Of a stretch of DNA of 64,000 nucleotides, positions 1-28,302 are shown one piece after another; within the stretch, counting starts at the first letter, position 1, and each line of letters starts with the position of its first letter. The position numbers and the translations under genes were made by a program. Origin of the DNA: Syntrophaceae bacterium (GTDB lineage Bacteria; Desulfobacterota; BSN033; UBA1163); assembly GCA_013388645.1 (NCBI GenBank), contig JACAEV010000100.1, positions 24,934 through 88,933 on the forward strand. Direction: 5' to 3'. The notes beneath the pieces are model-generated. The model saw nothing but the letters and a program-made list of their open reading frames with translations, made no database searches and was not told the DNA's origin.

Positions 1-246
1 AGTAACAGGTTCCTTGTTACGCCAGATGAAAAAGAGAATCAAGCTAACCAGGGCAAGGTCACGAAGAATGGCCGAAATAGACACCAGGACGAAGCTCAGG
101 CTCCCTTGTTTAATGGCGAAAAAGGAAATGGCCATCGAGGGAACGATGAGAAAAAGAAAAACAGAGACCTCAACAAGCCGCTCCACCCAGCTTAATTGCA
201 CACTATTCTCCTTGCTAAGTTCGGTATGATTCAATTCGATGACCAT
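1..246 (-). CDS. Membrane protein, N-terminal part (gene runs off the window start)
   Basis: ATG at 246..244 is preceded by AGGAGA. Translation MVIELNHTELSKENSVQLSWVERLVEVSVFLFLIVPSMAISFFAIKQGSLSFVLVSISAILRDLALVSLILFFIW shows two or three hydrophobic helices. It is open to the window edge, so it is absent from the ORF track. Function unknown. Confidence 0.45.
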   Translation of the reverse strand, partial: MVIELNHTELSKENSVQLSWVERLVEVSVFLFLIVPSMAISFFAIKQGSLSFVLVSISAILRDLALVSLILFFIWRNKEPVT

Positions 247-551
247 GAATGGTTCTCCTAAAGGCAATATTTTGATGATTCGTTAGATACATAATCTCAA
301 AGCGACACCCTTTCCCCAATTACAAAAAGGAATCAATACATTCAATTGCGAATCCCATGTTTGAAAATAAGTTGAGGAAGTTTTTCCTATCGGTTCATTT
401 CCTTGCAGCTCTGGTGCAAGACCATTAAGAGAGAGAAAAAACCAATGATACGATCCCGATAAGAAATCCGAAACAAATCCTACCTGAACTTCGTTGTCTT
501 CCTGTGAACATGACCGTCGCTTTTTTAGGGAAATTTGAGTTGTTTCCCTTC

Positions 552-896
552 CTATTTCATTTCAAGCTCATCCATTCTTTTCTGCATCTGGACCATTCTG
601 TCTTGCATCATCTTCATCTCTTTATCTGAGGCTGTACCCTTCTCCATCATTTTGGATATATCCATTAGCTGCATTGACATGTCCTTCATTATTTCAAACA
701 TCGCTTCCCTTACGTCCGGAGGAGGCATCACTTTCCTCATCATACCTGGCATCCTTGCCATTATTCCTGACATTTGATTCATCACCTCCCTCACTTTGTC
801 CATCATCTCTTTCTGATCCATCATCTCACCTTTTCCGGCATAGCTGTAGGAAGTTAACAATCCTAAAATTAGACCGATTAAGAATAACTTTCTCAT
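552..896 (-). CDS. Secreted methionine-rich, helix-forming protein (about 23% Met, MM / MxxM motifs)
   Basis: Internal ATG at 896 (MRKLFLIGLILGLLTSYSYA signal peptide) is preceded by AGGGGAGGA. The mature part is K/E/M-rich with repeated MM and MxxxM spacings (EMMDQKEMMDKVREVMNQMSGIMARMPGMMRKVM...). Confidence 0.55.
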   Translation of the reverse strand: MRKLFLIGLILGLLTSYSYAGKGEMMDQKEMMDKVREVMNQMSGIMARMPGMMRKVMPPPDVREAMFEIMKDMSMQLMDISKMMEKGTASDKEMKMMQDRMVQMQKRMDELEMK

Positions 897-1104
897 CTTT
901 GTCCTCCCCTTCTGTTTAAACGGATACATGAAATTCTTGTCGATGAAACTCACCCTATCCCTACTTCTGGAGAGCCCGTACGGTTACCTGTTACCATGAC
1001 TATTCAGCGTCTCCTCCTGATTCCGACCCCCTCCGGTTTCACGATAAGGCCTTCCCGTTATTGAAAATGGAAAGAATCACTCTTCTTTAAATCCCTAAAG
1101 GGGT

Positions 1105-4436: not shown

Positions 4437-6532
4437 TTCTTTCTTTTTCTCCTTTTTTGTTGCCGCGAAAACAAACCGAGAGCCTGTTGAAGAATATTTT
4501 CAACGGTGAACCCAAATTCACGCATCAATACCGAGGCGGATGCTGAAGCACCAAAGCGATCCAATCCAATGACATCACCTTGGTCCCCGACGTAGCGATG
4601 CCAACCCTGTGGCACGCCTGCTTCCACTGCAAGACGAAGCCGAACCGATGGCAGCAACACCGAGTCACGATACTCTTGTGACTGAGCCTCGAACAACTCC
4701 CAACTCGGCATAGAGACGACCCGCGCATCAATCATTTGTTCCTTCAACTTTTCCTGGACCTCAATCAATAGATGGATTTCCGATCCACTGGCAATCAAAA
4801 TCATATCAGGTTTGCCCTTGGGCTCTACCAGAATGTAAGCCCCACAGCGTAACCCTTCGACAGAGGAATTCCGAGTGTAGGCTAGGGTCGGAACACTCTG
4901 TCTTGTCAATATGAGCGCGACAGGTCGCTCCCGTATTTCTAAAGCAACCCGCCAGGCCACAGCCACCTCGTTCGCATCGCACGGACGAATGACAATAAGA
5001 TGCGGAATGGCCCTTAATGCAACGAGGTGCTCGACCGGTTGATGGGTCGGGCCATCTTCTCCCAGTCCAATGCTGTCGTGGGTAAAAACATAAATGACAT
5101 GCTGCTTCATCAGGGCAGCAAGGCGGATCGATGGTCGCATGTAATCCGAGAAGATGAGAAATGTTGCACCAAAGGGAATCAACCCTCCGTGGACCGCTAT
5201 TCCGTTCAGAATGGTCCCCATCGCATGTTCGCGGACGCCAAAATGGATATTACGACCTGCGTAGCTCCAGCCTCCCCCAACCGCGCCCTGCATATCCTCC
5301 TGTAGCGTAAGGGGACTTTCAAAATCCCCCATCCCGTTAAGTGCCGTATGAGTCGAAGGGTTCAAATCCCCCGATCCCCCGATCAGCATCGGGATACTGG
5401 ACGCTACAGCGTTCAGAACCTTTTCAGAAACGACGCGGGTAGCCATTCCTTTTCCTTCCGCAGGAAATTTAGGAATGTCTTTATCCCATCCCCTGGGTAA
5501 GTCACCGTTCATCATCCGATGGAGCTCTTCAGCGAGGTCAGGAAATTCCTTTTCGTACATAGAAAATTTCATATTCCACTCTTCTTCGGCCTGTTGACCT
5601 CTCGGCAGGGCCTGCCGAAAATGTCTGAGCGCTTCGCTTGGGATGTAGAAGGGTGGCTCAAGGGGCCACCCCAGATTCTGTTTGGTTAGTTTCACTTCTT
5701 CTTCGCCGAGGGGCGAGCCATGGGCTTGGAACGTATCTTGTTTGTTCGGTGATCCATATCCGATGTGGGTGCGCACCGAGATCAAAGAGGGACGCTCAAC
5801 CTCTTGTTGTGCGGCAAGTATTGCCCGATCGATAGCCTCCAGGTCATTTCCATTGTCAATGGACTGGACATCCCAGCCATAAGCTTCAAACCGCTTTCCA
5901 CAATCTTCCGTGAAGGTGAGATGGGTTGCCCCGGCCAACGAAATAGAATTGTTATCGTAAAAATAAATGAGCTTGCCAAGTCTCAGATGGCCCGCGAGAG
6001 AGGCCGCTTCCGAGGCAACACCCTCCATCAAATCGCCATCACTGACAATGGCATAGGTATAGTGATCAATGATTTCAAAACCGGGGCGGTTAAAGCAAGC
6101 CGCCAGATGTCTTTCTGCGATCGCGAGACCTACACCGTTGCCAAATCCCTGACCCAGTGGGCCGGTGGTCACTTCAATTCCGGGGGCAAGTCCTCGTTCA
6201 GGATGGCCGGGGGTCATACTGCCCCACTGCCGAAACTGTTTGATCTGTTCGAGAGGAAGAGCGTAGCCTGTGAGATGGAGTAGGCTATAGAGCAACATCG
6301 ATCCGTGTCCTGCGGAGAGAACAAATCTGTCGCGATCGAACCAATTTGGATTGGAAGGGTTGTATTTCAAAAATCGCGTCCACAAGATGTAGGCCATGGG
6401 AGCTGCACCCATCGGCATCCCTGGATGACCTGAACTGGCTTTTTCAACCGCATCAATCGATAGGAAACGAATCGTATTGATACAAAGAAGATCCAATTCA
6501 GATGAAGCAGAATTTGAATATTCCCTATTCAC
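4433..6532 (-). CDS. tkt: Transketolase
   Basis: 699 aa. [18 protein letters not shown] thiamine-diphosphate-binding N-terminus and a GDG motif. GTG start with GAGGGAGG RBS. Confidence 0.95.
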
Positions 6533-6569: not shown

Positions 6570-7310
6570 TTATATGGAGAGTTGGCCACTGGCTTCCCGG
6601 TCTATCACAAAGATCAATTTCCCTTTATCGGGGTGAACCATCGATGCTGGTAAAGAGGTATCTTCTTGATCTATTATTTTTTGTAACGCAGGCGCCTTAT
6701 TCTTTCCAACCACCAGAAATAAGATGTGTTTCGCATTGTTGATAACGGGCAATGTCAAAGTGATCCGCGGGTGTCTCATTTCATCCATGGAAACGGATGC
6801 GGCAAGGTGGATGGAGTCATCTAAAACAGGAGTCCCTGGAAAGAGAGATGCTGTATGACCGTCTTCACCGATCCCAAGGAGTAAGAGGTCAAACTCAGGG
6901 AACTGATCTTTCGATAATCCGAAGAATTTTTTCAGTTCCTCTTCGTATGCCATTGCTGAAATTTGCGGCGTTGGTCTGTCGGTCGGAACGGGATGGATGT
7001 TCCCTTGGGGGATAGGGACATGGTCGAGAAGCGTTTCCTTTAACATCCGATAATTGCTATCTCTGTGTTCAAGGGAGACAAACCGTTCATCTACAAGGAA
7101 GATATGTGTCTTATCCCACGGTAACATTTTTTTCACACCGGAAAATTTATGGTAAAGATCGATCGGGGTTTTTCCTCCCGAGAGGGCAGCACTAAAGACC
7201 CCCTTTCTTTCTATCGCCTCTTGTGAAGTCTCTCTCCAGTTTTCGATGATGAAAGAAGAAATGTCATCTTTGGCATCAAAGACGCGCACGCTCCGTCGAC
7301 GAACTTTCAT
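6570..7310 (-). CDS. pgl: 6-phosphogluconolactonase
   Basis: GGKTPIDLY and LLLGIGEDGHTASLFPG motifs. Start trimmed to the ATG at 7310, which gives an ATGA overlap with the zwf stop. Confidence 0.85.
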   Translation of the reverse strand: MKVRRRSVRVFDAKDDISSFIIENWRETSQEAIERKGVFSAALSGGKTPIDLYHKFSGVKKMLPWDKTHIFLVDERFVSLEHRDSNYRMLKETLLDHVPIPQGNIHPVPTDRPTPQISAMAYEEELKKFFGLSKDQFPEFDLLLLGIGEDGHTASLFPGTPVLDDSIHLAASVSMDEMRHPRITLTLPVINNAKHILFLVVGKNKAPALQKIIDQEDTSLPASMVHPDKGKLIFVIDREASGQLSI

Positions 7311-8806
7311 GTCGTGATCCAATGGCGGCCATCCCGTTCGAGCAATTGCTTGGCTTCCTCCGGTCCCCATGTCCCTGCCTCATAGTTTGGAAAGTGATCA
7401 GGGACAATGCTTTCCCACACTTCCAGGATAGGGACTAATATGGACCATGCAGCTTCTACTTGGTCATCACGCATAAAAAGCGTTGCATCCCCCAACATTG
7501 CATCCAATAATAGAGTTTCATAAGCTTCATGAATTGGTTTCCTAAAAGCTTCTCGATAGGTAAAACGCATATCGGCTGGACGGACTAACATTATTAAACC
7601 AGGCTGCTTAATCTGAAAGCGAAGATTAATGCCTTCCTCGGGTTGGATATGTATTACAATACGATTCGCTTGCCAGTCTTTTACAGAGGTAGATGGAAAA
7701 GACTGGTGAGGCACAGGTCGAAACTGAATAGAAACTTCTGAAACCTTGGCAGGTAGCCGCTTACCAGTTCGAAGATAGAAGGGTACATCCTGCCATCGCC
7801 AGTTATCAACAAGGAGTTTGAGAGCAACAAAGGTCTCGGTAATGGAATCCGGATCTACCCCAGTCTCCTCACGATAGCCAAGTACACGCAGTCCTTGAAG
7901 GCAGCCTGCTCCGTATTGGCCTCGAACAGTGAATCGATGGACTTGATCTTTAGGAATGGGTCGGATGGCATGCAGGACATCCACTTTCTTGTTACGTATT
8001 TCGTTGTCATTAAAAGATACTGGGGGTTCCATGGCGATGAGGCATAGGATCTGCAGCAGATGATTCTGTATCATATCGCGCAGGGCACCAGATTGGTCAT
8101 AATAGCCTCCCCGATGTTCCACTCCCACCTCTTCCGCTACGGTGATTTGAATATGGTCAATATAGCGTCGGTCCCAGATAGGCTCAAACAAAGCATTTGC
8201 AAATCTGAAAGCAAGAATATTTTGCACTGTTTCCTTCCCAAGATAGTGATCAATTCGGTAAATCTGGGATTCCTGAAAGAGGCTACTAAGAATCTGATTT
8301 AGGCCATGGGCCGACACTAAATCCCGACCAAAAGGTTTTTCTATAATAATGCGAGTTCGTTGGGGATCGTGAGATAGCCCGGCTTTCCCAAGATTTTTGG
8401 CAATTGCTTCAAACCCTTCGGGAGGCGTGGCTAAGTAAAAAGTGTGATTTGCATAAGTATGCCACGTTTTATCAAGCTTTGAAAGGTGATTGACCAGAGC
8501 GGTATATGCAGCAGAGTCATCATAATGGCCTGAAATGTAGCTGAAGTGGGAGGCAAAATCATGCCAATCCCGATCATTGGTTTTGCCACGGAGCGAAAAC
8601 CTATCTACTTTTTTGCGCAGGTGCTGTCGGAATGAAGTTTCGGTGAAATGTGTTCGGGCAAAACCGATAACCGCAAAGCATTCTGACAACCACTTATCGA
8701 CGAAAAGATTATAAAGTGCTGGTACTATTTTTCGCTCCGTAAGGTCACCTGAGGCACCAAAAATAACAATCACCATGGGTTTAAGATGCGATGGTAGAGT
8801 CATCAT
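7307..8806 (-). CDS. zwf: Glucose-6-phosphate 1-dehydrogenase
   Basis: IFGASGDLTERKIVPALYNLF NADP-binding N-terminus and the RIDHYLGKE active-site motif. 499 aa. Confidence 0.95.
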   Translation of the reverse strand: MMTLPSHLKPMVIVIFGASGDLTERKIVPALYNLFVDKWLSECFAVIGFARTHFTETSFRQHLRKKVDRFSLRGKTNDRDWHDFASHFSYISGHYDDSAAYTALVNHLSKLDKTWHTYANHTFYLATPPEGFEAIAKNLGKAGLSHDPQRTRIIIEKPFGRDLVSAHGLNQILSSLFQESQIYRIDHYLGKETVQNILAFRFANALFEPIWDRRYIDHIQITVAEEVGVEHRGGYYDQSGALRDMIQNHLLQILCLIAMEPPVSFNDNEIRNKKVDVLHAIRPIPKDQVHRFTVRGQYGAGCLQGLRVLGYREETGVDPDSITETFVALKLLVDNWRWQDVPFYLRTGKRLPAKVSEVSIQFRPVPHQSFPSTSVKDWQANRIVIHIQPEEGINLRFQIKQPGLIMLVRPADMRFTYREAFRKPIHEAYETLLLDAMLGDATLFMRDDQVEAAWSILVPILEVWESIVPDHFPNYEAGTWGPEEAKQLLERDGRHWITT

Positions 8807-8815
8807 ATTCCTCTT

Positions 8816-10231
8816 TCAAACTCGACCCCATTCCGTATGGAAACCCTCTCCTTTATCTATTCTCTCATAAGTATGTGCACCAAAGTAGTCACGCTGGGCC
8901 TGGGTCAGGTTGGCAGGCAACCAGGCGCTGCGATAACCGTCAAAATAGGCCAAGGTAACCATCATGGCAGGGACCGGTAGACCCAGTTCGATCGCAGTGA
9001 TGACAACGCGGCGCAGGTTTGCTTGCCGCTCCATTACTTCCTGCCCTAAATGAGGATCCAGGAGCAGGTTGACGAGGTCCCTCCGATTTTCGTATGCCCT
9101 TTGAATGTTCTCCAACAATGCCGCTCGGATAATGCATCCTCCTCGCCAGATCCGAGCCACGGCTTCAAGGTTCAAGCCATAGCCATATGCCTCCGAAGCC
9201 CCCTGAAGCAGGTTCATTCCTTGGGCATAGGTTATGATCATGCAAGCGTATAAAGCACCTCGGATGTGATCGATAAACGTTTTCTTATCTCCCCGGAAGG
9301 TTGTCTTAGGTCCCTGAAGCATTTGGCTTACCGCCTCCCTTTCGGTTTTGTGAGTCGACAGATTCCGAGCGATCACGGCTGCGTCGATCGTTGGCGTTGG
9401 AATCTGAAGATCCATCGCCTCACACGATGTCCACTTGCCAGTCCCTTTCTGCTTCGCTTGGTCGACAATCATGTCAATCAATCTCTTTGCCGTCTTATCA
9501 TCCGGCTGCTGAAAAATTTTCGTCGTGATCTCTATTAAGTAGGAATTCAATTCCTTCCGATTCCACTGGCCGTAGACGGAATGCAGTTCGTCGTTCGTCA
9601 AACATAGCCTTCGTTTCATCAGGTCATAGGTCTCCGCAATCAGCTCCATGACTCCGTATTCAATCCCGTTGTGGACCATTTTGACATAGTGCCCTGCAGA
9701 TCCCGATCCCAAAAAGGCGACACAGGGTTCTCCGTTTACATTTGCCGAAACGGCTTCCAAGATCGGACGGACCCTTTCAAAGGCCTCTTTTTGCCCTCCC
9801 GGCATCATGCTGGGGCCGTGGCGGGCACCATACTCACCTCCAGAGATACCCATACCCATATAGAACAAGCCCTTTTCAGCCAACGATTTGCCTCGACGAT
9901 TCGTATCAGAAAAATGAGAGTTCCCGCCATCAATAACCAGATCGCCGACTTCAAGGAGGGGAAAGATCCCTTCGATCACATCATCCACCGGCGCCCCTGC
10001 CTCGACCATGATTAGAATGGCTCGGGGTTTTTTCAGTAAACTGATAAATTCTTGTAAAGTGTAAGCAGATCGGATTTTCCGTTCACCAGCTTCCTTTTCA
10101 ATAAATTCTCGAGTTTTTTCCGCAGTCCGGTTATAAACACCCACTGAGAAACCGTGATCTGCCATATTCAGTGCCAGATTCCTCCCCATCACCCCCAAAC
10201 CAATCAAACCTATATCACACTCATGGGTCAT
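8816..10231 (-). CDS. gnd: 6-phosphogluconate dehydrogenase (decarboxylating)
   Basis: IGLIGLGVMGRNLALNMADHGF Rossmann N-terminus. Start set at the internal ATG (MTHECDIG) because GGAGG lies 5 nt upstream. The track ORF extends to 10264. Confidence 0.9.
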   Translation of the reverse strand: MTHECDIGLIGLGVMGRNLALNMADHGFSVGVYNRTAEKTREFIEKEAGERKIRSAYTLQEFISLLKKPRAILIMVEAGAPVDDVIEGIFPLLEVGDLVIDGGNSHFSDTNRRGKSLAEKGLFYMGMGISGGEYGARHGPSMMPGGQKEAFERVRPILEAVSANVNGEPCVAFLGSGSAGHYVKMVHNGIEYGVMELIAETYDLMKRRLCLTNDELHSVYGQWNRKELNSYLIEITTKIFQQPDDKTAKRLIDMIVDQAKQKGTGKWTSCEAMDLQIPTPTIDAAVIARNLSTHKTEREAVSQMLQGPKTTFRGDKKTFIDHIRGALYACMIITYAQGMNLLQGASEAYGYGLNLEAVARIWRGGCIIRAALLENIQRAYENRRDLVNLLLDPHLGQEVMERQANLRRVVITAIELGLPVPAMMVTLAYFDGYRSAWLPANLTQAQRDYFGAHTYERIDKGEGFHTEWGRV

Positions 10232-11196
10232 GATTGCCTCCATATTCTCACAAAAGCATTGCACATTGAATTGACCAATGACTTCAACGTAACGTTAAGA
10301 AGTCATCATTGCGTGAGTGATCACGCCAAATAAGGGGGAAGGGAAGATGCCCAACCCTAAAATCAGAACCAAAACAACGACGCCTGCGAGGAGGGCAGAA
10401 AGGTCGATCTATCGCAGTCAAATCATCCAGGCAGAGGAACCGACGCGTGGACTCGCCCTTGAGAAACCGCAGAACGTCCTTTGCCTGTTTTTCGGCTACG
10501 TGAAAGCTAACGTATCCGCCGTTGGGGGAGTCTCCTGGATCGCATCGTCAAATTTTTCCTTCTTATCCGGTTGGGAGGATACCACATTCATAAGGCCTCT
10601 GTTTCTCCTGATTTGGTTTCTTCTCTCCCAGCCAGCTTGAAAGAAAAAGGATAACCCCTATCAGCATGAAGGCACGAATCACATAAATGCCAAGAGAAAG
10701 GAGGCCTAGTTCCCAGGGGGTCACTGTTAGGCTATTTGATTCGAATTCCAAACTTTTCCTCTCCAACCTCGAGGCAACGAAACAGAACCGGTTCGCCTCT
10801 TGGCCTAACATTTAACTATTCTAATTATTTTCAATGGTCTACTTTACAAGAAACATGCCAGGATAACGAAATGATATGGTATTGTTTTAAAATTCAAATG
10901 GTTAAGTGTTGTATACTGTCATGAAGGAGGGGTAAAAGTTTCTGAAGATGTCCTGCAAGACAGGATTCTGTCCCTTGGAGCAGGAATTCGTCTATTCTAA
11001 CAAGACGTATCGGAGGGTTTTAGAGGCCATCAGAAAGTCACGAGACCCCAGCGATATGCTTTTTATCAAAACGACTTTCGCTGAACCCAATACATACCCT
11101 GGGCAGCGGGCACTTTCATTCCGCGTCATTAGCAATCTTGGCAGCATTTCCTTGTCTGGCAAATATCATCTTTAGTGAATGAATAACGGAAGAATC

Positions 11197-19848: not shown

Positions 19849-22409
19849 TTCGAAACAACTCCTTTCACGCCTCCAGAGATAAGAGATGCAATGTTGATGA
19901 GCACCCTAGGTAGCGCCAGTCCGCCAGGTGAAGCTAAATATTTTGGTTTCCACAAAGGATTAAATTTCTCCTTGTACTCACGCAATCCCTGGAAATTGTA
20001 GAAGTGCTCCCCATGGCGAAAAATAAATGCACCGATCCGGTTCCATAATGGGGCTAAGGCGTGATCCTCCATTCCGGAAAGAGGTGCCATCCCCAGATTG
20101 AACCATTGATATCCTTCTCTCTTTCCCCATAGCAACAGCTCAATAAAAAGGTAATCCATGACACCATGAGGGGCTTCCGGAAGGTACCGCATGAGGTCGA
20201 CGGAAAGCTCCTCTTTCTCCGTCCCCTGTAACAGATTGGCAAAGGCCAAGATTTTTTCCTGCTTTCGAACGACTCCTATTTGGGAATGCATCAAATAATC
20301 GGGTTTAAAAAAACCAATCGAGAATCTTTTCTCTTTCGTGTTTTTCTCTTTTAGCCATGTATCTGAAATACTTTTGAGTTCTGGAAGGTATTGAGGGATG
20401 ATAGAAGGGGAAATGATCTCGAATGAACAGGCCTCTTTTTCAATTTTGTGATGGGAGTGGCGGAGTTCCTTTCGATCTCTTTCAAGAGAAAAGTCTTGAA
20501 GAGGGATCAGCGCCTCTTCACCAAGCTTTAGGAGGTTGAGACCAAGATCGAGATAGAGGCTGAGATTTTCTTTTCCGACTTCGTAAAATATTGTCCATCC
20601 TATATAACGGTCACACATCTCACGGAACCGCCAAACCAACTCAATCCATTCCTCTTTCGGTCCGATAGGGTCCCCTAAGGCTACCCAACTTCGTCCCTCA
20701 ATGCCGTACATGATGAAGGCTTTTCCGTTGTCGCTAAACAGAAATTCTTTATCACCAAGTAATGCAAGATGGGCATAGGTTCTTAGAGATTTCTCTGCAA
20801 TATTGCGAGCCTTCTCCAAGTCGTTCGTGCCGGGAGGAGAGGGCTTAGGTGGGCCAGGATGAAGCAACCGGGCAAATGCAAAAAACAACGTCGCTCCTAT
20901 CACTCCAACAGTGGTGCGGAGAAAACGGGATGCATCTCCTAAAAGTGTGAATCCCCACCAAAGTTCGTCGGAGTACTCTACATGCTTGTAGGAGAAGAAG
21001 CCTATCCAGATTGAGCATAGTAAAACAAGAATGATCGCAATCATCCAACCGGGTGTGAAGCGTTGACTGAAAAGGGATGCCTTTCGATAGAAATGTTTTC
21101 GAGAAGAAAGAAGGACTCCAAGCATAATCAATAAAATAATGGCTTCCTCATAATCAAACCCTTTAAGAAGGGAGAAGATGATTCCAGCACTGAGAAGGAT
21201 CATCGTAAGAAGATAGGCAGCGTCGAGTCTCCGTTGAATACCTCTTGCTAAAAGAAGAAACCCCACACCAGCCAGGCTCCCAAGGAAATGGGAGACTTCT
21301 ATCACAGGTAAAGGAAGAAAATCTTTTAGCCATATTAAACGATCTCCCACCCCAGGTAACGCACCCGAAAAGAGCAGAATGACGCCAGCAATAAATGTGG
21401 TAATAGACAGCACATGGGGCACCATTGTGGGAACCCAATGGCCGAAGATCTTGAAAACCCGCTCAACCCGTTCCTTCTTCTCAAGAACCTCGTGCGCCCC
21501 AAGCATCACTGTTGCTACAGCTAAAGGCAGAAGGTAATATATTCCTCGATAAGCTAAGAGCGATCCAAAAACTGCTGAGGCAGGGAGGTAAGGAGTGAGA
21601 AGGAGAACGATAATTGTCTCAAATACCCCAAGTCCTCCCGGAACCTGACTCACCAGTCCCGCGAATTGGGCCATCATGTAGATACCAATAAATCCAATTA
21701 AAGACAGACCTTCACTTGAGGGGAGTAGAAAATATAAGATGCCTCCAGCGAGTCCCCAATCTATAGAAGCAACAGCAACCTGGACAAGAAATAGGTGAGC
21801 GGGCGGCATGGGAAATTTCCATCCTCCAAGTTCCAAAGACCTCTTCCTGGTGATGTTCCATAAAAAGTAACCTCCCACCAGAGAAAGAAAAATTACTCCC
21901 ATGCTGCGAAGAGAGGCAAAGGGAAGATGAAGGGCCGATGGAATAACCATTGGCTCAAATAGAAAAACGATACCCCCAAGGGTTAAAAACCCGAGCCAGA
22001 GTGTCAGGCTGCAAAAGAGAACCACTTTAGTGATCTCTTCTGCCGAAAGCCCCCAAGCCGAGTAGAGACGAAAGCGTACCGATCCCCCAGCGAGCATGGA
22101 AAGCCCAATGTTATTGCTGAAGGCATAGCCAATGAAGGATGCGGCGGCGATCTTGCGGTATGGAAGTTGATAACGTATATAACGTAAGGCTAATAGGTCA
22201 TACCCCGACATGATGAAATAATTCAGCACGGTCAGCCCTAAGGCGATGAGGAGATATGAAAGAGGGAGTTCCCGCAAGTGGCGAAGGATGTCATGATAAT
22301 GATAGCCTTTCAGCGCACGATACAATACCCAGAGGGCGATAGAGAAAAGGACAAGGCCAACCAAAGGACCTATGGCATGTAGAAATTTTTTCTTCATTTT
22401 GAATAGCAA
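19845..22409 (-). CDS. mprF: Bifunctional lysyl-phosphatidylglycerol synthase/flippase MprF
   Basis: 854 aa. Polytopic N-terminal flippase domain plus a C-terminal DUF2156-type aminoacyl-PG synthase domain (LGDKEFLFSDNGKAFIMYGIEGRSWVALGDPIGP). Confidence 0.8.
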   Translation of the reverse strand: MLFKMKKKFLHAIGPLVGLVLFSIALWVLYRALKGYHYHDILRHLRELPLSYLLIALGLTVLNYFIMSGYDLLALRYIRYQLPYRKIAAASFIGYAFSNNIGLSMLAGGSVRFRLYSAWGLSAEEITKVVLFCSLTLWLGFLTLGGIVFLFEPMVIPSALHLPFASLRSMGVIFLSLVGGYFLWNITRKRSLELGGWKFPMPPAHLFLVQVAVASIDWGLAGGILYFLLPSSEGLSLIGFIGIYMMAQFAGLVSQVPGGLGVFETIIVLLLTPYLPASAVFGSLLAYRGIYYLLPLAVATVMLGAHEVLEKKERVERVFKIFGHWVPTMVPHVLSITTFIAGVILLFSGALPGVGDRLIWLKDFLPLPVIEVSHFLGSLAGVGFLLLARGIQRRLDAAYLLTMILLSAGIIFSLLKGFDYEEAIILLIMLGVLLSSRKHFYRKASLFSQRFTPGWMIAIILVLLCSIWIGFFSYKHVEYSDELWWGFTLLGDASRFLRTTVGVIGATLFFAFARLLHPGPPKPSPPGTNDLEKARNIAEKSLRTYAHLALLGDKEFLFSDNGKAFIMYGIEGRSWVALGDPIGPKEEWIELVWRFREMCDRYIGWTIFYEVGKENLSLYLDLGLNLLKLGEEALIPLQDFSLERDRKELRHSHHKIEKEACSFEIISPSIIPQYLPELKSISDTWLKEKNTKEKRFSIGFFKPDYLMHSQIGVVRKQEKILAFANLLQGTEKEELSVDLMRYLPEAPHGVMDYLFIELLLWGKREGYQWFNLGMAPLSGMEDHALAPLWNRIGAFIFRHGEHFYNFQGLREYKEKFNPLWKPKYLASPGGLALPRVLINIASLISGGVKGVVSK

Positions 22410-22450
22410 AGATAATAGACCCTCTAATGTTTTGGACTTTCAAACTTCCT

Positions 22451-23737
22451 TTACTCCGGAAGGATACCCTTTTTGATATAGATGGGACGAACCATTTCTC
22501 TTAGCGAAGGAAGTCTCCTGACAAATAAAATCGAACCTAAAATACAAACTATCCCGCCGATCATGACAGTTCCTGAAGCACCTACCTTGCTCGCCATACT
22601 CCCGGCTAACAAACTTCCAAAGGGTACCATTCCCATGAACGCCATTGTATAAAAACTCATTACCCTACCCCTTTTGTCTTCTTCGACTATGGTCTGTATA
22701 ATTGTATTGCTCGATGCCATTTGCACCATCATTCCAAAACCGACTAAGACCATTAAGATCAAAGAAATTGGAAAAATACGGGAAAGAGCGAAGGTGATGA
22801 GTCCGATCCCAAAGATATTCAGAGCGATAACGATGAGCCTCCCCAACCCCAAAACATTCTTTCTCGAAGCAAGATAAATAGCTCCTACCAGCGCCCCGAT
22901 TCCTGAAGCACCCATGAGAAAGCCAAGGGTATGGGATCCACCCTGTAGGATATTTTTTGCAAAAATTGGCATGAGCACTGTATACGGCATCGCTGCTATA
23001 CTGACCAACCCCAAGAGGAAAAGCAGGGTCCGAATAGGTGCAAATCCAAAGGTGTAAGTGAACCCTTCCCTCAATCCACTGATGACATGCGAATCTTGGG
23101 GTTGTATAGCCCGTGGCTTAACTTTCATCGCCAAAAGGGCGATGATCACGGCAAAAAAACTGATGCCGTTCAAAAGAAAACAAATCCCTTCACTCACCAG
23201 GGAGATGAGCATCCCTCCAATGGAAGGTCCCAGTAATCTCGCTCCATTGAAGAGGAGGGAGTTCAAAGCAATGGCATTTCCCAAATCCTCACTATTTTCT
23301 ATCATCTCTACGACGAATGCCTGACGGGTCGGCATATCAAAGGCGTTCACGAGGCCAAGGAATAACGACAGGAGGATGATATGCCAGATCGCTATCTTCC
23401 CTGTCAAATCAAGAGCAGAGAGAAGAAAAGCCTGCATCATGGCCAGGGATTGAGTTAAAATGAGAATCCGATGGCGGTTCCATCTATCGATCAAAACACC
23501 CGCAAAAGGAGTTAACAGAAAGGAAGGAATTTGACCTGTAAATCCCACCACACCTAATAAGAATGCTGAATTCGTCATGCGGTAAACCAACCAACTCATT
23601 GCAAGTTGCTGGATCCATGTGCCGATGAGGGAAACGCCTTGACCACCGAAAAAGAGTCGATAATTTCGATGACTCACTGAGCGAAAGATCAGTTTCAGAC
23701 CATTTGGGTCTTTAGGATGGGGTTTATTAATTTCCAT
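22451..23737 (-). CDS. MFS transporter
   Basis: 428 aa with a 12-TM pattern. Motif-A-like GFTGQIPSFLLTPFAGVLIDRWNRHR. Confidence 0.8.
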   Translation of the reverse strand: MEINKPHPKDPNGLKLIFRSVSHRNYRLFFGGQGVSLIGTWIQQLAMSWLVYRMTNSAFLLGVVGFTGQIPSFLLTPFAGVLIDRWNRHRILILTQSLAMMQAFLLSALDLTGKIAIWHIILLSLFLGLVNAFDMPTRQAFVVEMIENSEDLGNAIALNSLLFNGARLLGPSIGGMLISLVSEGICFLLNGISFFAVIIALLAMKVKPRAIQPQDSHVISGLREGFTYTFGFAPIRTLLFLLGLVSIAAMPYTVLMPIFAKNILQGGSHTLGFLMGASGIGALVGAIYLASRKNVLGLGRLIVIALNIFGIGLITFALSRIFPISLILMVLVGFGMMVQMASSNTIIQTIVEEDKRGRVMSFYTMAFMGMVPFGSLLAGSMASKVGASGTVMIGGIVCILGSILFVRRLPSLREMVRPIYIKKGILPE

Positions 23738-23899
23738 TCTTCTTGTTACTCATTCTTATCCATAAAAAACGCTGAGCAGATCGTTGGCATAATCCGGGTC
23801 CAGGTCTTTGAGAATCTTGCACTCATTCAAGGCAGAATCACGATCACCCACTTCTAAATAAGCCAAACCGAGAAAGTAATGTGCAAGAACAAATTCGGG

Positions 23900-24772
23900 T
23901 CAGATATGAATCGCCTCTTCGTAGGCTTTTACTGCTTTCTTGTAACGTCCGAGTTGCGCATGACAATATCCGATCTGAAAATATGCCTGCGCATAGCGAG
24001 GATTTTTCTTAACCGCCTCCTCAAAGTAGAAAAGGGCTTTCTTGTATTCTTCTTTCCAAAGGAAAGGGAATCCTTTCGCATAAAGAGCTTCTGCAACCTC
24101 TTCCCTCCTTCCTCCCCATTCGGTTAAAGTTTTTCCTTTAGTTGGTTTGAATCTCGCGATTCTCTCACTTGTAAGGATAAAGTGAAAGGGGTGCCCTTCA
24201 ATGGTTCGAGAAATAATAACTCCAATGACCTGACCGTTCATACTGATTACCGGATTGCCAGCACAGACAGAAGAGAGAGACGTAGAGATTTGAATCCCTT
24301 TCCCAAAATCCGGAATCTCCCAAAGGCCGGATATAACACCCCCCTTACCAGGCTTCTCAGGTTTTGAAGTGTCAATTACCATGACTCTCTCACCGAGTTG
24401 AAGAAGAACAGTACTTATGGCAAGAGGGTGAACAGTTCCTGGGGGAATCTCAACAGAAAGTCGAATAAGGTCAGCTTCTTTATCTTCCGTGACAACCCTG
24501 GTCACTGGATAAAGCATTCCATCGGAAGCTTTTATTTCTGCACGGGACGCCCCCTCCAATAGATGTCGATTCGTGATGACATCTCCCTCTCTACTGATAA
24601 AAAACCCCTTTCCTTCACTCAGTAACCTTCCTTCCTGATCGTAAGTCAGAATAGCAATGAAAGATGGTGAAACTTTTTTGATAAGGGTCGATATTTCTTC
24701 TCCGGTTGAGGGAACAGAAATCATCACTGAGAAGAAAAAACCCCATAGGATTAGAAACCAGCGGGTCATCAT
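23900..24772 (-). CDS. Secreted trypsin-fold / TPR protein, paralogue A
   Basis: Signal peptide, trypsin-like His/Asp contexts (TNRHLL, DLIRL) and C-terminal TPRs. The GDSGG serine box is replaced by AGNPV. A conserved in-frame sequence of 47 codons continues beyond the TGA at 23900..23902, reaching 23756 (see findings). Confidence 0.7.
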   Translation of the reverse strand: MMTRWFLILWGFFFSVMISVPSTGEEISTLIKKVSPSFIAILTYDQEGRLLSEGKGFFISREGDVITNRHLLEGASRAEIKASDGMLYPVTRVVTEDKEADLIRLSVEIPPGTVHPLAISTVLLQLGERVMVIDTSKPEKPGKGGVISGLWEIPDFGKGIQISTSLSSVCAGNPVISMNGQVIGVIISRTIEGHPFHFILTSERIARFKPTKGKTLTEWGGRREEVAEALYAKGFPFLWKEEYKKALFYFEEAVKKNPRYAQAYFQIGYCHAQLGRYKKAVKAYEEAIHI

Positions 24773-24883
24773 ATCAATCTCTTCTATGATTGGATAATTT
24801 TACGATTCCATCTGATCTAAGTTAATGTCAAAGGTGTTTAAAAAACTCTTAGCTTTTCTGCCGTCTTGAAAATTTCTGGAATG

Positions 24884-25174
24884 TCAGTACAACACCTCCA
24901 ATGTCATGATATTGCATTTTTCATTATCGATCATGATCTCATCCGAATCACAGATGTAGCTTTTAATAAGGCGAATATTTGATGATGGACCAATGCTACA
25001 ACCAGGGATTTCCAGGCGTGCGATGGGCCTCATCTGCTTATAAAAGACAACCGTATGCTCATCTTCCAAAACCCAACTGGTAAATTCTCCAAGATCGAGA
25101 CAATCTGCTGAGACCAAAGCCGGGAAGAGCAACCAAACCAAAACACTCACAAGGATCAGTATTCTCATTTTCAT
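24884..25174 (-). CDS. Small secreted cysteine-containing protein (96 aa from ATG 25174)
   Basis: AAGGAGAG RBS, signal peptide MKMRILILVSVLVWLLFPALVSA, four Cys in the mature part. Sits between the two trypsin/TPR paralogues. Confidence 0.5.
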   Translation of the reverse strand: MKMRILILVSVLVWLLFPALVSADCLDLGEFTSWVLEDEHTVVFYKQMRPIARLEIPGCSIGPSSNIRLIKSYICDSDEIMIDNEKCNIMTLEVLY

Positions 25175-25224
25175 TTTCTCTCCTTCCTCTACGTTACATC
25201 CCCTTCTTAACCGCTGTAACTTTC

Positions 25225-26244
25225 TCACTGAATCATACGGAGGAGGTCGCTGGCATAATCCCGATCGAGATCTCTAAGAATCTTATATTCCTCCATCGCA
25301 TGATTCTTATCCCTCACCTCTAAATAGAGCAGACCTAGAAAGAAGTGTGAAAGGACAAAATCAGGTTTGATACGAACGGATTGTTTGTAAGCTTCATATG
25401 CCTCTACATATTGCTTGAGTTGAGCATGACAATATCCAATCTGGAAATATGCCTCCGCATAGCGAGGGTTTTTCTTAGCTGCCTTCTCGAAGTATAGAAG
25501 GGCTTTCTGATAGTCTTCTTTCCAAAGGAAAGGAAGCCCCTCCGCATAAGCGATGTCTGCTGTTTCCTCCCTCATTCCTTCCCATTCAGCGAGCGTAATC
25601 CCTTTGCCTGGCTTCAGTCTAATGACTCTCTTACCTGGAAGGATAAAGTGAAAGGAATGCCCCTCGATGGTTCGAGAAATAACTACCCCAACGACTTGGC
25701 CATTCATACTGATCACAGGATCGCCAGCAGTGACGGGAAAGGGAGCCTTAGAGATTTGGATCCCTTTCCCAAAAGTAGGGGTCTCCCAAAGACCAGACAC
25801 CACGCCCCCTAAAGCAGATCTCTCAGGTTTTGAAGTGTCAATCATTATGACTCTCTCGCCGAGTTGAGGAAGAACAGCACTCATGGCGAGAGGGTGAACA
25901 GCCTTTGGAGGGACCTCCACAGAAAGTCGAATAAGATCAGCTTCTTTATCTTCCGCGACCACCCTGGTCACTGGATAAAGCATTTGATCGACAGTTTTTA
26001 TTTCCGCCCGCGACGCTCCCTCCAATAGATGTCGATTCGTGACGACATCCCCTTCCTTACTGACAAAAAAGCCTCTTCCGTGACTCAGAGTGCTCCCTTC
26101 TTTATCGTAAGTTAAGACATCAAGAATGCATGGCCCAATCTTTTTAACCATTGACGACAAATTTTCTTCCGACAGCGAAGACGAAACAGCCATCATGCAG
26201 GAAAGAAAAACAACCCATTCTAAAAACAATCTTCTAACCCTCAT
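25225..26244 (-). CDS. Secreted trypsin-fold / TPR protein, paralogue B (full length)
   Basis: About 70-80% identical to paralogue A across the protease-like core and TPR tail (…PRYAEAYFQIGYCHAQL…). Serine box is AGDPV, not GDSGG. Confidence 0.75.
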   Translation of the reverse strand: MRVRRLFLEWVVFLSCMMAVSSSLSEENLSSMVKKIGPCILDVLTYDKEGSTLSHGRGFFVSKEGDVVTNRHLLEGASRAEIKTVDQMLYPVTRVVAEDKEADLIRLSVEVPPKAVHPLAMSAVLPQLGERVIMIDTSKPERSALGGVVSGLWETPTFGKGIQISKAPFPVTAGDPVISMNGQVVGVVISRTIEGHSFHFILPGKRVIRLKPGKGITLAEWEGMREETADIAYAEGLPFLWKEDYQKALLYFEKAAKKNPRYAEAYFQIGYCHAQLKQYVEAYEAYKQSVRIKPDFVLSHFFLGLLYLEVRDKNHAMEEYKILRDLDRDYASDLLRMIQ

Positions 26245-26747
26245 TGCTTCATCCCTTTTATTAATTCAATTTGCCCCCGAATCTCTCCATCCGGATGTTT
26301 CTTCGTGCATACGTTGACATGAGTTTCTCCTGCCTTCATCATTTGTAACAGGCAATCGGGGGATTCTCCTTTCAGTGATCCCACCAACTGATATGCTGCA
26401 ATCGTGCCTTCAGCATAAAGTGTGCCGCTGATATCCCTTTTCTTAGGCTCAGTGAAAAGAGTTACTATGGGTTCACCTTTTGCACCTCTCCTCCCGGCAT
26501 GAATATGTGCAGACGTAACCTCCCCGATGTCTGTTAATGTCAGCCGATAAATCAACTCCTCCTCTCCTTTGTTAAGTCTAAGAGTAATTTCACCTTTGGC
26601 TTTCGTCTCAACAGGCGGGACTTCTTCATTTCCAAGGAGTTTTGCTTGGAAGATGGAACCTCCTCCCTGCTGATCGGTTGCCATTCCAAGAGAAACGAAA
26701 ATCACCATTGTCAAAATGGTGAAAAAGTGGATCCTTGCCTTTGCCAT
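26241..26747 (-). CDS. CHRD-domain secreted protein
   Basis: Signal peptide MAKARIHFFTILTMVIFVSLGMA from the internal ATG at 26747. SAHIHAG...GEPIV CHRD signature. The track ORF extends to 26879. Confidence 0.65.
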   Translation of the reverse strand: MAKARIHFFTILTMVIFVSLGMATDQQGGGSIFQAKLLGNEEVPPVETKAKGEITLRLNKGEEELIYRLTLTDIGEVTSAHIHAGRRGAKGEPIVTLFTEPKKRDISGTLYAEGTIAAYQLVGSLKGESPDCLLQMMKAGETHVNVCTKKHPDGEIRGQIELIKGMKQ

Positions 26748-26851
26748 GGAACACCTATTGGCTGATATTACTAATTTCGCGAGGTTTCCTTGAGTGAATG
26801 GAAAAGGTAGTTTCGGTGGACACAAAACCGATCCCTCCTCTAAAAGTCTCC

Positions 26852-27400
26852 TTACCGCTGAATATAAGCATACCTCCACTCACTCTGATAAGCATAATCC
26901 CCCCATGGATATTCAGGGAAATAATAATCTTTATAAGGAGGCGGATAATGATACCAGTATATTCTCCACAGATATATCTCCTCACTAAGGAGAAGGGGAT
27001 AAGAATACTCTAACTCTCCCAGGGGTCTTTTCTTCACCCCTATGATTTTCCCCGCCACCGTTATCTCCCTTCCTTTTCGGTAGAAATGGGGATCCAAGAA
27101 TTTTTCAACGAGAGCTAAGAATCTTCCCCCAGATTCATTTGTCTCTTTCGGTTCTTTCAACCAATTCAAAGGCTTTTGTAAGACCTCAATAAGAGTAGTA
27201 TTATCCTTCTGGGTTAAGGTCTCAATGATCTCTCCACCCCAAATAACTGTCTTTCCTTCGTATGCTTCCGGATTTTTGAGGATTTCCTCAAAAGCAGGGC
27301 TTCGATCTGCAAGATCTCTCAAATTCTTTGAGATGGGTGAGCAGCTAATAAAAAAAACAAAGAGAAACAATAGAAATATTAACCAGTTCGTCCTTTTCAT
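26852..27400 (-). CDS. Slp-family outer-membrane lipoprotein
   Basis: Lipobox FFISCS. YEGKTVIWGGEIIETL is the core of the Slp/YeaY family. Confidence 0.7.
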   Translation of the reverse strand: MKRTNWLIFLLFLFVFFISCSPISKNLRDLADRSPAFEEILKNPEAYEGKTVIWGGEIIETLTQKDNTTLIEVLQKPLNWLKEPKETNESGGRFLALVEKFLDPHFYRKGREITVAGKIIGVKKRPLGELEYSYPLLLSEEIYLWRIYWYHYPPPYKDYYFPEYPWGDYAYQSEWRYAYIQR

Positions 27401-27445
27401 CTTTTAAGTCTCCTCTTATGATCTCCCCTGCCTTTTAGGTTTAGC

Positions 27446-28138
27446 CTATCCAAGCACACGGCCAGGCTGTGATTTGAGAGCCGGTCCTTTAAATCTTGGT
27501 ATCGGGAGATATTCCACAGAAGGCTGGTGCCTTACAGGCTGAGGGTAAAGGCTCATCAGCTGATATAGTTCAGCAGGAATACCTTTTGTCACATGAAGGC
27601 CGAGTTTCATTGCTTCTTCATACGTTATTGGATAATCATGAGCCCATCTGCCCTCAGTAAGAATTCGTGCCAGCTCTTCTGCCTTTTCCGACGGATATTT
27701 CCCTTCTAAGAGGGACCTCGCCTGAGATCTGATCTGCTCAATTGCCTTTCGGCCCACATCCGCAAGGAGCCATGATTTGTCATCAATATCTGATATGGGC
27801 TTGCTCTCAGCTAACTTCACAAGGGAGACTGCAGGATACTCACCCAGTTGTGGATCTACCGGTCCAAGAACCGCATGTTCTTCCATCATAATCTCATCGG
27901 CAGCGAGAGCAATCAATGTCCCTCCTGACATGGCATAGTGGGGAACAAAAGCGGTCACTTTCCCACGGTGCAATTTTATAGCATGGGCAATTTGGTATGA
28001 TGCAAGGACCAGACCACCAGGGGTGTGCAGCACAAGGTCAAGGGGCATATCCGGGTCTGTCATGTGAATAGCCCTGATCACTTCTTCCGAGTCATCAATA
28101 TCAATGTATCGAAGGATGGGAAAACCTAATAGGCTCAT
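27446..28138 (-). CDS. Clp-fold serine peptidase, SDH (serine dehydrogenase proteinase) / NfeD-N-like family
   Basis: LHTPGGLVLASYQIAHAIKLHRGKVTAFVPHYAMSGGTLIALAADEIMM matches the ClpP/crotonase-fold catalytic region. Confidence 0.7.
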   Translation of the reverse strand: MSLLGFPILRYIDIDDSEEVIRAIHMTDPDMPLDLVLHTPGGLVLASYQIAHAIKLHRGKVTAFVPHYAMSGGTLIALAADEIMMEEHAVLGPVDPQLGEYPAVSLVKLAESKPISDIDDKSWLLADVGRKAIEQIRSQARSLLEGKYPSEKAEELARILTEGRWAHDYPITYEEAMKLGLHVTKGIPAELYQLMSLYPQPVRHQPSVEYLPIPRFKGPALKSQPGRVLG

Positions 28139-28302
28139 GGTCTCCTGTCTGTGTATGAGAACAATGACTCTTGAACCCCTTTTTTCTCAAACGTAGAGAT
28201 GACTCTCTGTCTTATCCCCACCAGGAGTCGCTTTTTTAAAAGAGGCTGCAGTGCAACAATGATAAAAAACAACCAGAATATCGTGGAGATGTCGAATTTC
28301 AT
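28138..28302 (-). CDS. Small single-TM protein (54 aa), translationally coupled to the SDH peptidase
   Basis: AAAGGAGTG RBS 5 nt before the ATG at 28302. MKFDISTIFWLFFIIVALQPLLKKRLLVGIRQRV... Its TGA stop overlaps the next ATG (cATGAgc). Below the track length cutoff. Confidence 0.45.

Follow-up and report, generated by a model that had tools for sequence, protein, structure and literature searches.

In a 64,000-nucleotide stretch of DNA from a Syntrophaceae bacterium (the window), one of two tandem paralogous genes, copy A, is interrupted by an in-frame TGA, which is probably an ordinary young nonsense mutation in a redundant paralogue. An earlier sequence-only reading had left the choice between a recent nonsense mutation, an error in the sequence and programmed read-through, and it is the first of these that gains support, since the TGG of the orthologue is one transition away and the tail beyond the stop is nearly unchanged. 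The stop matters mainly for annotation, in that the database entry NWG02815.1 should carry a label as truncated at the C-terminus (an allele or pseudogene of a 338-aa protein) and not be taken for a native 290-aa protein.

We propose that a single G-to-A transition turned TGG (Trp) into TGA in the TPR2–TPR3 loop of one of the two paralogues. Release factor 2 would terminate most ribosomes at this codon, and the main product of copy A would be a protein of 290 aa without TPR3 and the C-terminal capping helix, i.e. without three of the seven helices of the TPR domain. The 47 post-stop codons would still be protein-like because there has been too little time for decay, and the intact paralogue B may buffer the loss of the copy A tail. 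If Trp-tRNA(Trp) decodes UGA as a near-cognate at a basal rate, a little full-length protein with the ancestral residue could still be made; read-through of this kind at a few per cent seems plausible if E. coli is a guide.

The tandem locus and its interrupted copy

Copy A as terminated (23900..24772, minus strand; 290 codons; NCBI NWG02815.1) runs from an ATG at 24772 to the TGA at 23900..23902. Its product up to this stop ends ...EEAIHI and consists of a hydrophobic N-terminus, a dead S1C/Trypsin_2 domain and TPR1–TPR2. The TGA (minus strand, context AUC UGA CCC; from −15 to +15, GCGATTCATATC TGA CCCGAATTTGTT) is located in the inter-repeat loop between TPR2 and TPR3. Past it, the frame reads PEFVLAHYFLGLAYLEVGDRDSALNECKILKDLDPDYANDLLSVFYG, i.e. 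47 codons, before it closes at TAA 23756..23758; this orphaned tail (23756..23899, minus strand) comprises both helices of TPR3 and the C-terminal capping helix, and a full-length read-through product would contain the junction peptide ...AIHIWPEFVLAHYFLGLAYLEVGDR. A promoter-like site (TTAACT-17-TAAAAT at 24797..24825, minus strand), which is a consensus match only, is found 25 nt 5' of the ATG. Internal re-initiation after the stop was also considered and rejected, since the sole in-frame TTG and GTG have no Shine–Dalgarno-like sequence upstream.

The intact paralogue, copy B (25225..26244, minus strand), encodes 339 aa with a dead S1C/Trypsin_2 domain, three TPRs and a capping helix (AF2 model pLDDT 89.7). 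The coordinates given by the sequence-only reading, among them those of the TGA and the TAA, are all correct, and so is its alignment of the copy A tail to the tail of copy B, with AAA (Lys293) opposite the TGA. The two proteins are, however, 65% identical (61% in the tail) and not about 75% as it had put it, a figure that fits the 74% identity of the nucleotide sequences. Both had also been called secreted; the only ground for this is their hydrophobic N-termini, and we consider A and B probably exported.

The gene between the two copies (24884..25174, minus strand; NCBI NWG02816.1), rightly recognized before as one for a small Cys-containing protein, encodes 96 aa with a hydrophobic N-terminus, four Cys and no Pfam family, and is a conserved neighbour of the S1C/TPR gene family (74% identity in L002, 55% in L008). 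The TGA of a CHRD-domain protein gene (26241..26879, minus strand; the Logan gene call starts at 26825) overlaps the copy B ATG in an ATGA, which suggests that the two genes are translationally coupled. At the other end, an MFS_3 transporter gene (22451..23737, minus strand) starts 18 nt past the TAA of full-length copy A and 162 nt past the premature TGA, and termination at this larger distance may lower its expression. It is also the downstream gene in the orthologous loci L001, L005 and L004. The window has two copies of the S1C/TPR gene where the relatives L013 and L016-18 have a single copy at the syntenic site. Other decay in the clade is seen at the locus as assembled: in L001 the gene for the small Cys protein has both a frameshift and a stop, and L005 has a split MFS gene.

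The sister-species orthologue and the tail beyond the stop

The informative comparison for the stop site is, in our view, the one with the true orthologue and not with paralogue B. This orthologue, from a sister species, lies between the same genes, shows 80% identity to copy A and is present in five ENA and JGI assemblies. Its codon at the stop site is TGG (Trp) in L001 (ENA), L005 (JGI) and the cluster members P0121-P0123, all of which read ...AIHIWPEFVLAHYFLG... and share the 18-nt spacer and the downstream MFS gene; the TGA of copy A thus differs from it by one G-to-A change. The Lys of the paralogue, to which the sequence-only reading had pointed, is present in B but is misleading, since the immediate ancestral residue was most likely Trp. 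Other family members have AAA or AAG (Lys), CGA (Arg), AAC (Asn), GAG (Glu) or Gln at this site, with GAG found in L020 (P0126), which has an A-type tail. Codon parsimony is not decisive for the direction between TGG and TGA, as it depends on the outgroup, with AAA and CGA favouring a TGA intermediate and GAG and AAG favouring an ancestral TGG.

Among the GTDB representative genomes, copy A as a query found no relative, and the alignment as a query retrieved only homologues at 51–52% identity (L008, L009) and distant TPR matches, with no closer genome of the species. A protein search with the tail alone yielded just seven fragments (40–71% identity) and no additional A-type orthologues, and an exact look-up for an intact copy A allele located the proteins encoded next to it nowhere but in the NCBI MAG and the Logan run SRR10095362. 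One family member in pieces (P0128/L019) was set aside as uninformative, since its contig is full of short ORFs and indel errors in the assembly probably broke it up.

The codons after the TGA had been described as open and protein-like, and this stands: 43 of the 47 residues are those of the intact orthologue tail (94% nucleotide identity, only 8 nucleotide differences), so chance does not account for the open frame. Compared with the orthologue, the tail has a dN/dS of 0.33 (P = 0.07 versus neutrality, P = 0.21 versus omega = 0.2), a value which comes from only these 8 differences and cannot tell constraint from neutrality; the tail may still be translated. A relative-rate test places the polarisable tail differences on the A branch by 8:0, 6:0 or 6:1 according to which outgroup is used, whereas upstream they split about 1:1, as in 54:58 (Fisher p = 0.006 with L013 as the outgroup, 0.02–0.06 with the others). 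Two A-specific replacements, Y318C (23819..23821) and M335V (23768..23770), affect nearly invariant tail positions, and copy A deviates at 4 of 19 conserved tail columns, i.e. at more than any of 18 relatives. These substitutions on the A branch, two of them at nearly invariant residues, hint at relaxed constraint on the copy A tail. This argument from rates is complicated by the fact that the most conserved stretch of the locus (92–96% nucleotide identity) runs from the tail through the spacer into the first part of the MFS gene, as nucleotide-level constraint or recent recombination could explain part of the tail conservation. A promoter scan run to account for this conservation found no promoter site in the copy A tail, and its sole promoter-like match was the one 5' of the copy A ATG.

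Other readings of the UGA codon

Of the alternatives, selected leaky read-through survives best, even if it seems unlikely. It would have UGA decoded as Trp by a near-cognate tRNA(Trp), either to generate isoforms with two and three TPRs or with TGA as a tolerated intermediate to or from TGG. The base following the copy A UGA is a C, and UGA-C is reportedly the weakest termination signal in E. coli; among the 19 other ORFs of the window that end in TGA, a single one has C at +4. Basal read-through of UGA by Trp-tRNA(Trp) is known in E. coli (PMC10570021; PMC4989110), where UGA is misread as Trp at 1e-2 to 1e-3 (PMC4989110), and the orthologue residue is exactly the one that such misreading inserts. 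The tail is open, with the dN/dS of 0.33 given above, AAA or CGA outgroups make TGA the more parsimonious intermediate, and stop intermediates have been reported in double substitutions (PMC7918605). The stop is absent, however, from all five orthologue assemblies, and the tail substitutions are concentrated on the A branch and affect invariant residues. There is also no stimulatory structure downstream, as 53, 60 and 81 nt of RNA 3' of the UGA fold no better than shuffled sequences (z-scores +0.55 to +1.5). With the stop not conserved in the orthologues and no such structure, the programmed read-through envisaged in the sequence-only reading is unsupported, and a basal level of a few per cent would represent a by-product and not a programme. 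The tRNA(Trp) and prfB genes lie outside the window; tRNA(Trp) variants with a 4-bp anticodon stem are on record (PMC13092985). Should read-through be appreciable, an anaerobic deltaproteobacterial lineage would offer, in this locus, a convenient natural test of how far UGA leaks to Trp.

We rate as quite improbable, and below selected read-through, that the TGA is an artefact of sequencing or of the consensus, or else a minority variant in a population that mostly has TGG and an intact gene. The Logan assembly of SRR10095362, from an independent assembler, has the same TGA (contig L022), which makes an assembler artefact unlikely and weakens the sequencing-error option raised earlier. Contig L022 is identical to the window at 2949 of 2950 positions, and since the single difference, elsewhere at 23698, sets it apart from the MAG, the Logan sequence is not a copy of the MAG sequence. 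Yet the sequence is known from one MAG (a 98,290-bp NCBI contig) and one run only, and as the base was called at the assembly level and both assemblies probably go back to the same dataset, a systematic error or a mixed population is possible; furthermore, there are frameshifts, perhaps erroneous, in other metagenome contigs of the family (L005, L019). On the other hand, copy A is the only gene in the window that is visibly disrupted, and substitution errors are rare in short-read consensus sequences. A literature search found no mention of SRR10095362.

Less probable again is a UGA that is tolerated and leaky, at which Trp-tRNA(Trp) in the weak UGA-C context would restore the ancestral Trp. 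The cell would then contain a two-TPR form together with a minor three-TPR form, and TGA would be a viable intermediate between Lys or Arg codons and the TGG of the sister lineage; if so, copy A would offer a natural snapshot of sense–stop–sense codon evolution.

Selenocysteine, which many deltaproteobacterial lineages use and for which UGA is the codon, is effectively refuted at this site. The sequence-only reading was correct in dismissing it on account of the paralogue's Lys, but there are better grounds: the orthologue has Trp, homologues carry W, K, R, N, Q or E and never Cys, and the site is a TPR inter-repeat loop and not a redox centre. Moreover, no SECIS-like hairpin follows the UGA (the 53–81 nt downstream behave like shuffles) and there is no Rfam match, the window contains no Sec machinery such as selA, selB, selC or selD and no tRNA-Sec, and no positive evidence for selenocysteine emerged within its 64 kb. 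Rfam returned nothing at gathering thresholds across the whole window and only chance lncRNA or sRNA matches in an E-value scan around the site, and a tRNA scan of the window found no tRNAs. The sole same-frame TGA junction, at 8815/8816, tried as a possible selenoprotein, separates two complete genes, 6PGD and G6PD. Finally, a genetic code in which UGA is a sense codon (code 4 or 25), for which nothing speaks beyond this single codon, is refuted by stop-codon usage in the window, where 20 of the 52 best ORFs end in TGA and are closely followed by the next gene, and where TGA interrupts no other long ORF.

Fold, family and comparison with known systems

Copies A and B match Pfam Trypsin_2 (PF13365; E = 6e-13 and 2e-13, respectively) and the TPR families TPR_1 and TPR_2 (E = 1e-11 to 1e-16), and the predicted model has seven helices over residues 229–338 with a pLDDT above 90. 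Alignment to Deg1 (3qo6) and HtrA2 as well as codon positions show that both have the His (TNRHLL) and the Asp (DLIRL) but Ala (GCT) at the HtrA-type Ser position, in agreement with the catalytic Ser having been noted as missing. The triad sites are His70 (24563..24565), Asp101 (24470..24472) and Ala171 (24260..24262) in copy A and His72, Asp103 and Ala173 (25726..25728) in copy B. Judged by this replacement of Ser by Ala, neither should be filed as an active protease.

With the HtrA/DegP/Deg1 S1C proteases (3qo6, 3otp, 1lcy), A and B share a chymotrypsin-like fold (Foldseek E = 1e-13, probability 1.0 for Deg1, DegP and HtrA1), His and Asp in canonical motifs and probably an envelope location. 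Unlike these, they have Ala for Ser and three TPRs instead of a PDZ match, and the triad positions drift freely in the clade of short proteins to which they belong. The long Trypsin_2-TPR proteins (450–590 aa, e.g. P0005-P0033) resemble A and B in domain order, sequence (41–49% identity) and TNRH and D[LI][IV]R motifs, but have more TPRs, and 95 of the 96 retain His-Asp-Ser together with a GSSGSPV box, whereas the short clade has lost the triad. A search for the Ser box in relatives, as had been advised, therefore gives a divided answer, and the idea of a non-catalytic module suits the short three-TPR clade with its degenerate triads but not the wider Trypsin_2-TPR family.

The short S1C-fold/three-TPR clade occurs in Syntrophaceae/Thermodesulfobacteriota-type MAGs, and its conserved neighbours are Slp, CHRD and a small four-Cys protein or a 355-aa repeat protein. 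The lost triad together with these neighbours makes the probably exported clade a candidate envelope binding module or pseudoprotease. A precedent for an S1C fold as a binding module is RsgI9 of Clostridium thermocellum (7sjy), whose S1C-like sensor domain binds a ligand and is not known to cleave it. It is the second-best sequence match and one of the top structural matches (E = 4e-9, rmsd 2.7 Å over 181 columns), and in the alignment its nucleophile position holds Thr and not Ser. RsgI9 is, however, a membrane anti-sigma factor with an NTF2 domain, whereas A and B are small, end in TPRs and show no connection to a sigma factor.

As for the stop itself, copy A shares with basal UGA read-through in E. 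coli the UGA codon, the C next to it and Trp as the misread residue, which here is the orthologue residue; in E. coli this read-through has been measured, whereas the copy A case is known from sequence alone. The general point is that a protein-like extension past a stop needs comparison with an orthologue before recoding is invoked. Bacterial genes commonly carry in-frame stops, which do not last long (PMC7918605), and the closest parallels to the young nonsense allele proposed here are the nonsense polymorphisms and young pseudogenes described by Belinky et al. 2021 (PMC7918605). Like these, copy A has a single in-frame stop in an otherwise intact gene, flanking codons that still look selected, a stop at the tip of the tree only, and a TGA, i.e. 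a leaky stop read as Trp. That study required a stop to be present in at least two genomes, whereas the copy A stop is seen in one population only, and, unlike in its cases, the sense residue of the copy A orthologue happens to be Trp itself.

An interrupted copy in a tandem pair

The two minus-strand paralogues, copy A and copy B, both match Pfam Trypsin_2 and several TPR families, and align end to end, with 65% identity at the protein level and 74% at the DNA level; the figure of about 75% that the sequence-only reading gave for the proteins is the nucleotide value. Copy B (25225..26244) encodes 339 amino acids. Copy A runs from ATG 24772 to TGA 23900..23902, i.e. for 290 codons ending in EEAIHI, and its frame stays open beyond this stop for a tail of 47 codons (PEFVLAHYFLGLAYLEVGDRDSALNECKILKDLDPDYANDLLSVFYG) up to TAA 23756..23758. 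With AAA (Lys) in copy B opposite the TGA, the open frame noticed earlier is borne out in its coordinates, its length and its Lys counterpart. The 290-residue product of copy A is identical to NWG02815.1, encoded on a 98,290-bp contig next to NWG02816.1 and NWG02814.1. According to the AF2 model of copy B (pLDDT 89.7, pTM 0.81), a stop at residue 291 would remove TPR3 (helices 297-309 and 313-326, copy B numbering) and the capping helix 328-338. The TPR module would thereby lose three of its seven helices. Coupling to the MFS gene directly downstream may suffer as well from the early stop, since the full-length frame would end 18 nt before the start of that gene.

Some 50 window genes stand nearly back to back on the minus strand, and those around the pair are envelope and quality-control genes, in the order FtsH, M50 peptidase, rhomboid, SDH/ClpP-like protease, Slp, CHRD, copy B, small Cys protein, copy A, MFS_3 transporter, MprF and VirJ. 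The CHRD stop overlaps the start of copy B (ATGA, 26241..26244), which suggests a translationally coupled unit. After copy B (25225..25228), a GGAGG-type ribosome-binding site precedes ATG 25174 of the small Cys gene (24884..25174), which encodes 96 amino acids with a hydrophobic N-terminus and four Cys.

A probable change from tryptophan codon to stop

The closest homologue of copy A, P0002 (80% identical; on the sister-species ENA contig L001), is followed by the same 18-nt spacer as in the window (TAAGAATGAGTAACAAGAAGAATG) and then by the same MFS gene (72% amino acid identity), and has the small Cys gene upstream of it; P0002 is thus a positional orthologue of copy A. At the site, L001 reads ATT CAT ATC TGG CCT GAA and the window ATT CAT ATC TGA CCC GAA, and the sister-species JGI contig L005 and three more cluster members (P0121-P0123) all carry IHIWPEF. 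Given TGG in the orthologues, only a single G-to-A transition separates the stop from an intact Trp codon, as opposed to the two changes needed from the Lys codon of the paralogue, and comparison with the orthologue, rather than the paralogue, is decisive for copy A's stop.

By codon parsimony the direction of change is ambiguous and varies with the outgroup. Homologues have W, K, R, N, Q or E at this position, and the outgroup codons are AAA in copy B and in the homologous loci L004, L013 and L016, CGA in L008, AAG in L002 and GAG in L020, which has the nearest A-type tail. With AAA or CGA, TGA could be a step on the way to TGG; with GAG or AAG, TGG comes out as ancestral. We favour TGG to TGA over the reverse because all five assemblies of the sister lineage agree on Trp, because a stop surviving a divergence of dS ~0.4 would need sustained read-through, and because in-frame stops in bacteria are reported to be short-lived, persisting only on the scale of population polymorphism (PMC7918605).

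Between copy A and L001, the 290 upstream codons give dS 0.44, dN 0.12 and dN/dS 0.28, and the 47 tail codons dS 0.125, dN 0.042 and dN/dS 0.33. This last ratio rests on eight differences (3.5 synonymous, 4.5 non-synonymous) and decides for neither neutrality (P = 0.07 against it) nor strong constraint (P = 0.21 against it). Relative-rate and conserved-column tests lean towards relaxed constraint on the tail. With four outgroups, polarisable tail changes fall on the A and L001 branches in ratios of 6:1, 6:0, 8:0 and 8:0, against a balanced 53:61, 62:65, 57:67 and 54:58 upstream (Fisher p for the asymmetry 0.006 with L013 and 0.02-0.06 with the others). Among 18 relatives, 19 columns of the tail show conservation of 90% or more; copy A deviates at four of these, more than any other sequence, with Tyr318 to Cys and Met335 to Val specific to it. 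Nucleotide identity to L001 rises to its maximum of 92-96% from the tail through the spacer into the first MFS codons (23690..23960); the protease part reaches 80-85% and the MFS body about 70-75%. Conservation of the tail may thus owe something to recent recombination or to a constraint on the nucleotide sequence of this junction. Whichever reading of its history applies, the tail is still protein-like because only 8 of its 141 positions have changed.

Overall, we consider it probable that copy A, one of two redundant paralogues of a catalytically dead S1C-fold/TPR protein, has recently acquired a nonsense mutation from TGG to TGA, and its stop is an ordinary feature. Among the explanations first put forward from the sequence, nonsense mutation is thus favoured, sequencing error is unlikely and programmed read-through is unsupported, the stop not being conserved.

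Read-through, artefact and recoding

UGA is the leakiest stop codon, and rare read-through in copy A would by analogy insert Trp, i.e. the residue of the orthologue. The base after the TGA is C, as at only one of the 19 other TGA terminators in the window, and UGA-C is reportedly, from work by Poole and colleagues in 1995, the weakest termination signal in E. coli. Selected or functional leaky read-through nevertheless seems unlikely to us, as nothing stimulatory lies downstream of this non-conserved stop. In E. coli, EF-Tu:Trp-tRNA(Trp) and RF2 compete at UGA, and the outcome determines the level of read-through, which is ~2% at 37 °C and rises to 4% at 25 °C (PMC10570021). Earlier work put it at 1e-2 to 1e-3 (PMC4989110), and ~6% is given for B. 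subtilis (cited in PMC7918605).

That the TGA is an artefact or a minority variant is quite improbable. Exact look-up of neighbouring proteins found two Logan contigs of run SRR10095362, of which L021 corresponds to window 28174..24339 at 100% identity and L022, which also contains the TGA and the 47 open codons, to 24349..21400 with one mismatch. This difference at 23698 (C versus T between the NCBI MAG and L022, a synonymous Leu change in the MFS gene) indicates population variation or independent consensus calling. Since a second assembler with a slightly different consensus thus made the identical call here, an error of the assembler is unlikely, although both assemblies probably come from one dataset.

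Selenocysteine, already doubted in the sequence-only reading, is effectively excluded: the 53, 60 and 81 nt that follow the UGA show no folding advantage over shuffles (z = +1.5, +0.95 and +0.55), an Rfam scan for an RNA element found nothing, Cys never occurs at the aligned position among the homologues, and in the copy B model the site falls in a loop between helix 279-292 (TPR2-B) and helix 297-309 (TPR3-A), where a redox site would not be plausible. A code in which UGA is sense deserves practically no weight, because TGA terminates 20 of the 52 best ORFs in the window and interrupts no other long ORF there, so that the organism uses the standard code. One further same-frame TGA junction of long ORFs, between 6PGD (8816..10294) and G6PD (7307..8815), was rejected as a recoded fusion (7307..10294), these being two complete genes parted by TGA.

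Redundancy and loss of the catalytic triad

Related loci carry a single copy, in the order FtsH, M50, rhomboid, SDH protease, Slp, single copy and a 355-aa repeat protein in L013, and CHRD, single copy and a 356-aa repeat protein in L016-18. The tandem pair is thus lineage-specific and copy A the extra copy, which fits the tolerance of its truncation. In L008 the small Cys gene comes after the family member; in L002 and L001 it stands before the A-type gene. The repeat-protein gene (L013 7039..8106, L016 7075..8145; repeats ...ILYAGT..GGVFKS.DGG.(S/T)W...) is conserved, has no Pfam match on record and is absent from the window. At the L013 locus there is no CHRD gene, and the last 16 codons before the trypsin/TPR gene (5954..6001), 94% identical to the window CHRD C-terminus, look like the remnant of a deletion fusing the CHRD end to the Slp ORF.

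Other irregularities occur in these relatives. The L001 small Cys orthologue (1..299) is frameshifted and has an in-frame stop (LIQS-stop-MCDSDE versus LIKSYICDSDE in the window), and the L005 MFS_3 gene (588..1884) is split into overlapping ORFs (588..1079 and 1060..1884); both could be real decay or assembly error. A family member on the 63-kb ENA contig L019 (1389..2377), in 129-aa Trypsin_2 and 109-aa TPR pieces with many short ORFs, was set aside, its fragmentation probably reflecting assembly indel errors. L004, with the MFS gene downstream as in copy A, shares 80% identity with A upstream of the site, its tail being nearer B (78%) than A (67%), and L002 is 81% identical to A upstream and only 54% in the tail, a mosaic pattern that suggests recombination or gene conversion among paralogues.

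In an alignment to Deg1 (3qo6) and HtrA2, His72 and Asp103 of copy B fall on the catalytic His and Asp, and Ala173 takes the place of the Ser, with VTAGDPV instead of PGNSGGP; the copy A equivalents are His70, Asp101 and Ala171 (VCAGNPV), and both copies have a GCT codon for this Ala, in agreement with the earlier claim that neither has a catalytic Ser. Across 121 aligned sequences (copy B and 120 listed homologues, P0001-P0120), the long forms (400 aa or longer, with more TPRs) have His-Asp-Ser and a GSSGSPV box in 95 of 96 cases. The short 3-TPR forms (about 330-380 aa), A and B included, are mostly degenerate (HDA, HNA, SNS, GND, YGS, DNN, RND, WNT and others), with three still His-Asp-Ser. 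Since the long forms keep the triad and the short ones mostly do not, the short clade appears to have branched off, as pseudoproteases, from a Trypsin_2-TPR family that is otherwise active, and the initial idea of a non-catalytic binding module finds support for this clade only. The best Foldseek matches are Deg1, the RsgI9 S1C-NTF2 bi-domain, HtrA1, DegP and DegS. Of known systems, the S1C-like domain of RsgI9 is the nearest solved precedent for such a module in the short clade, with Thr at the aligned nucleophile position.
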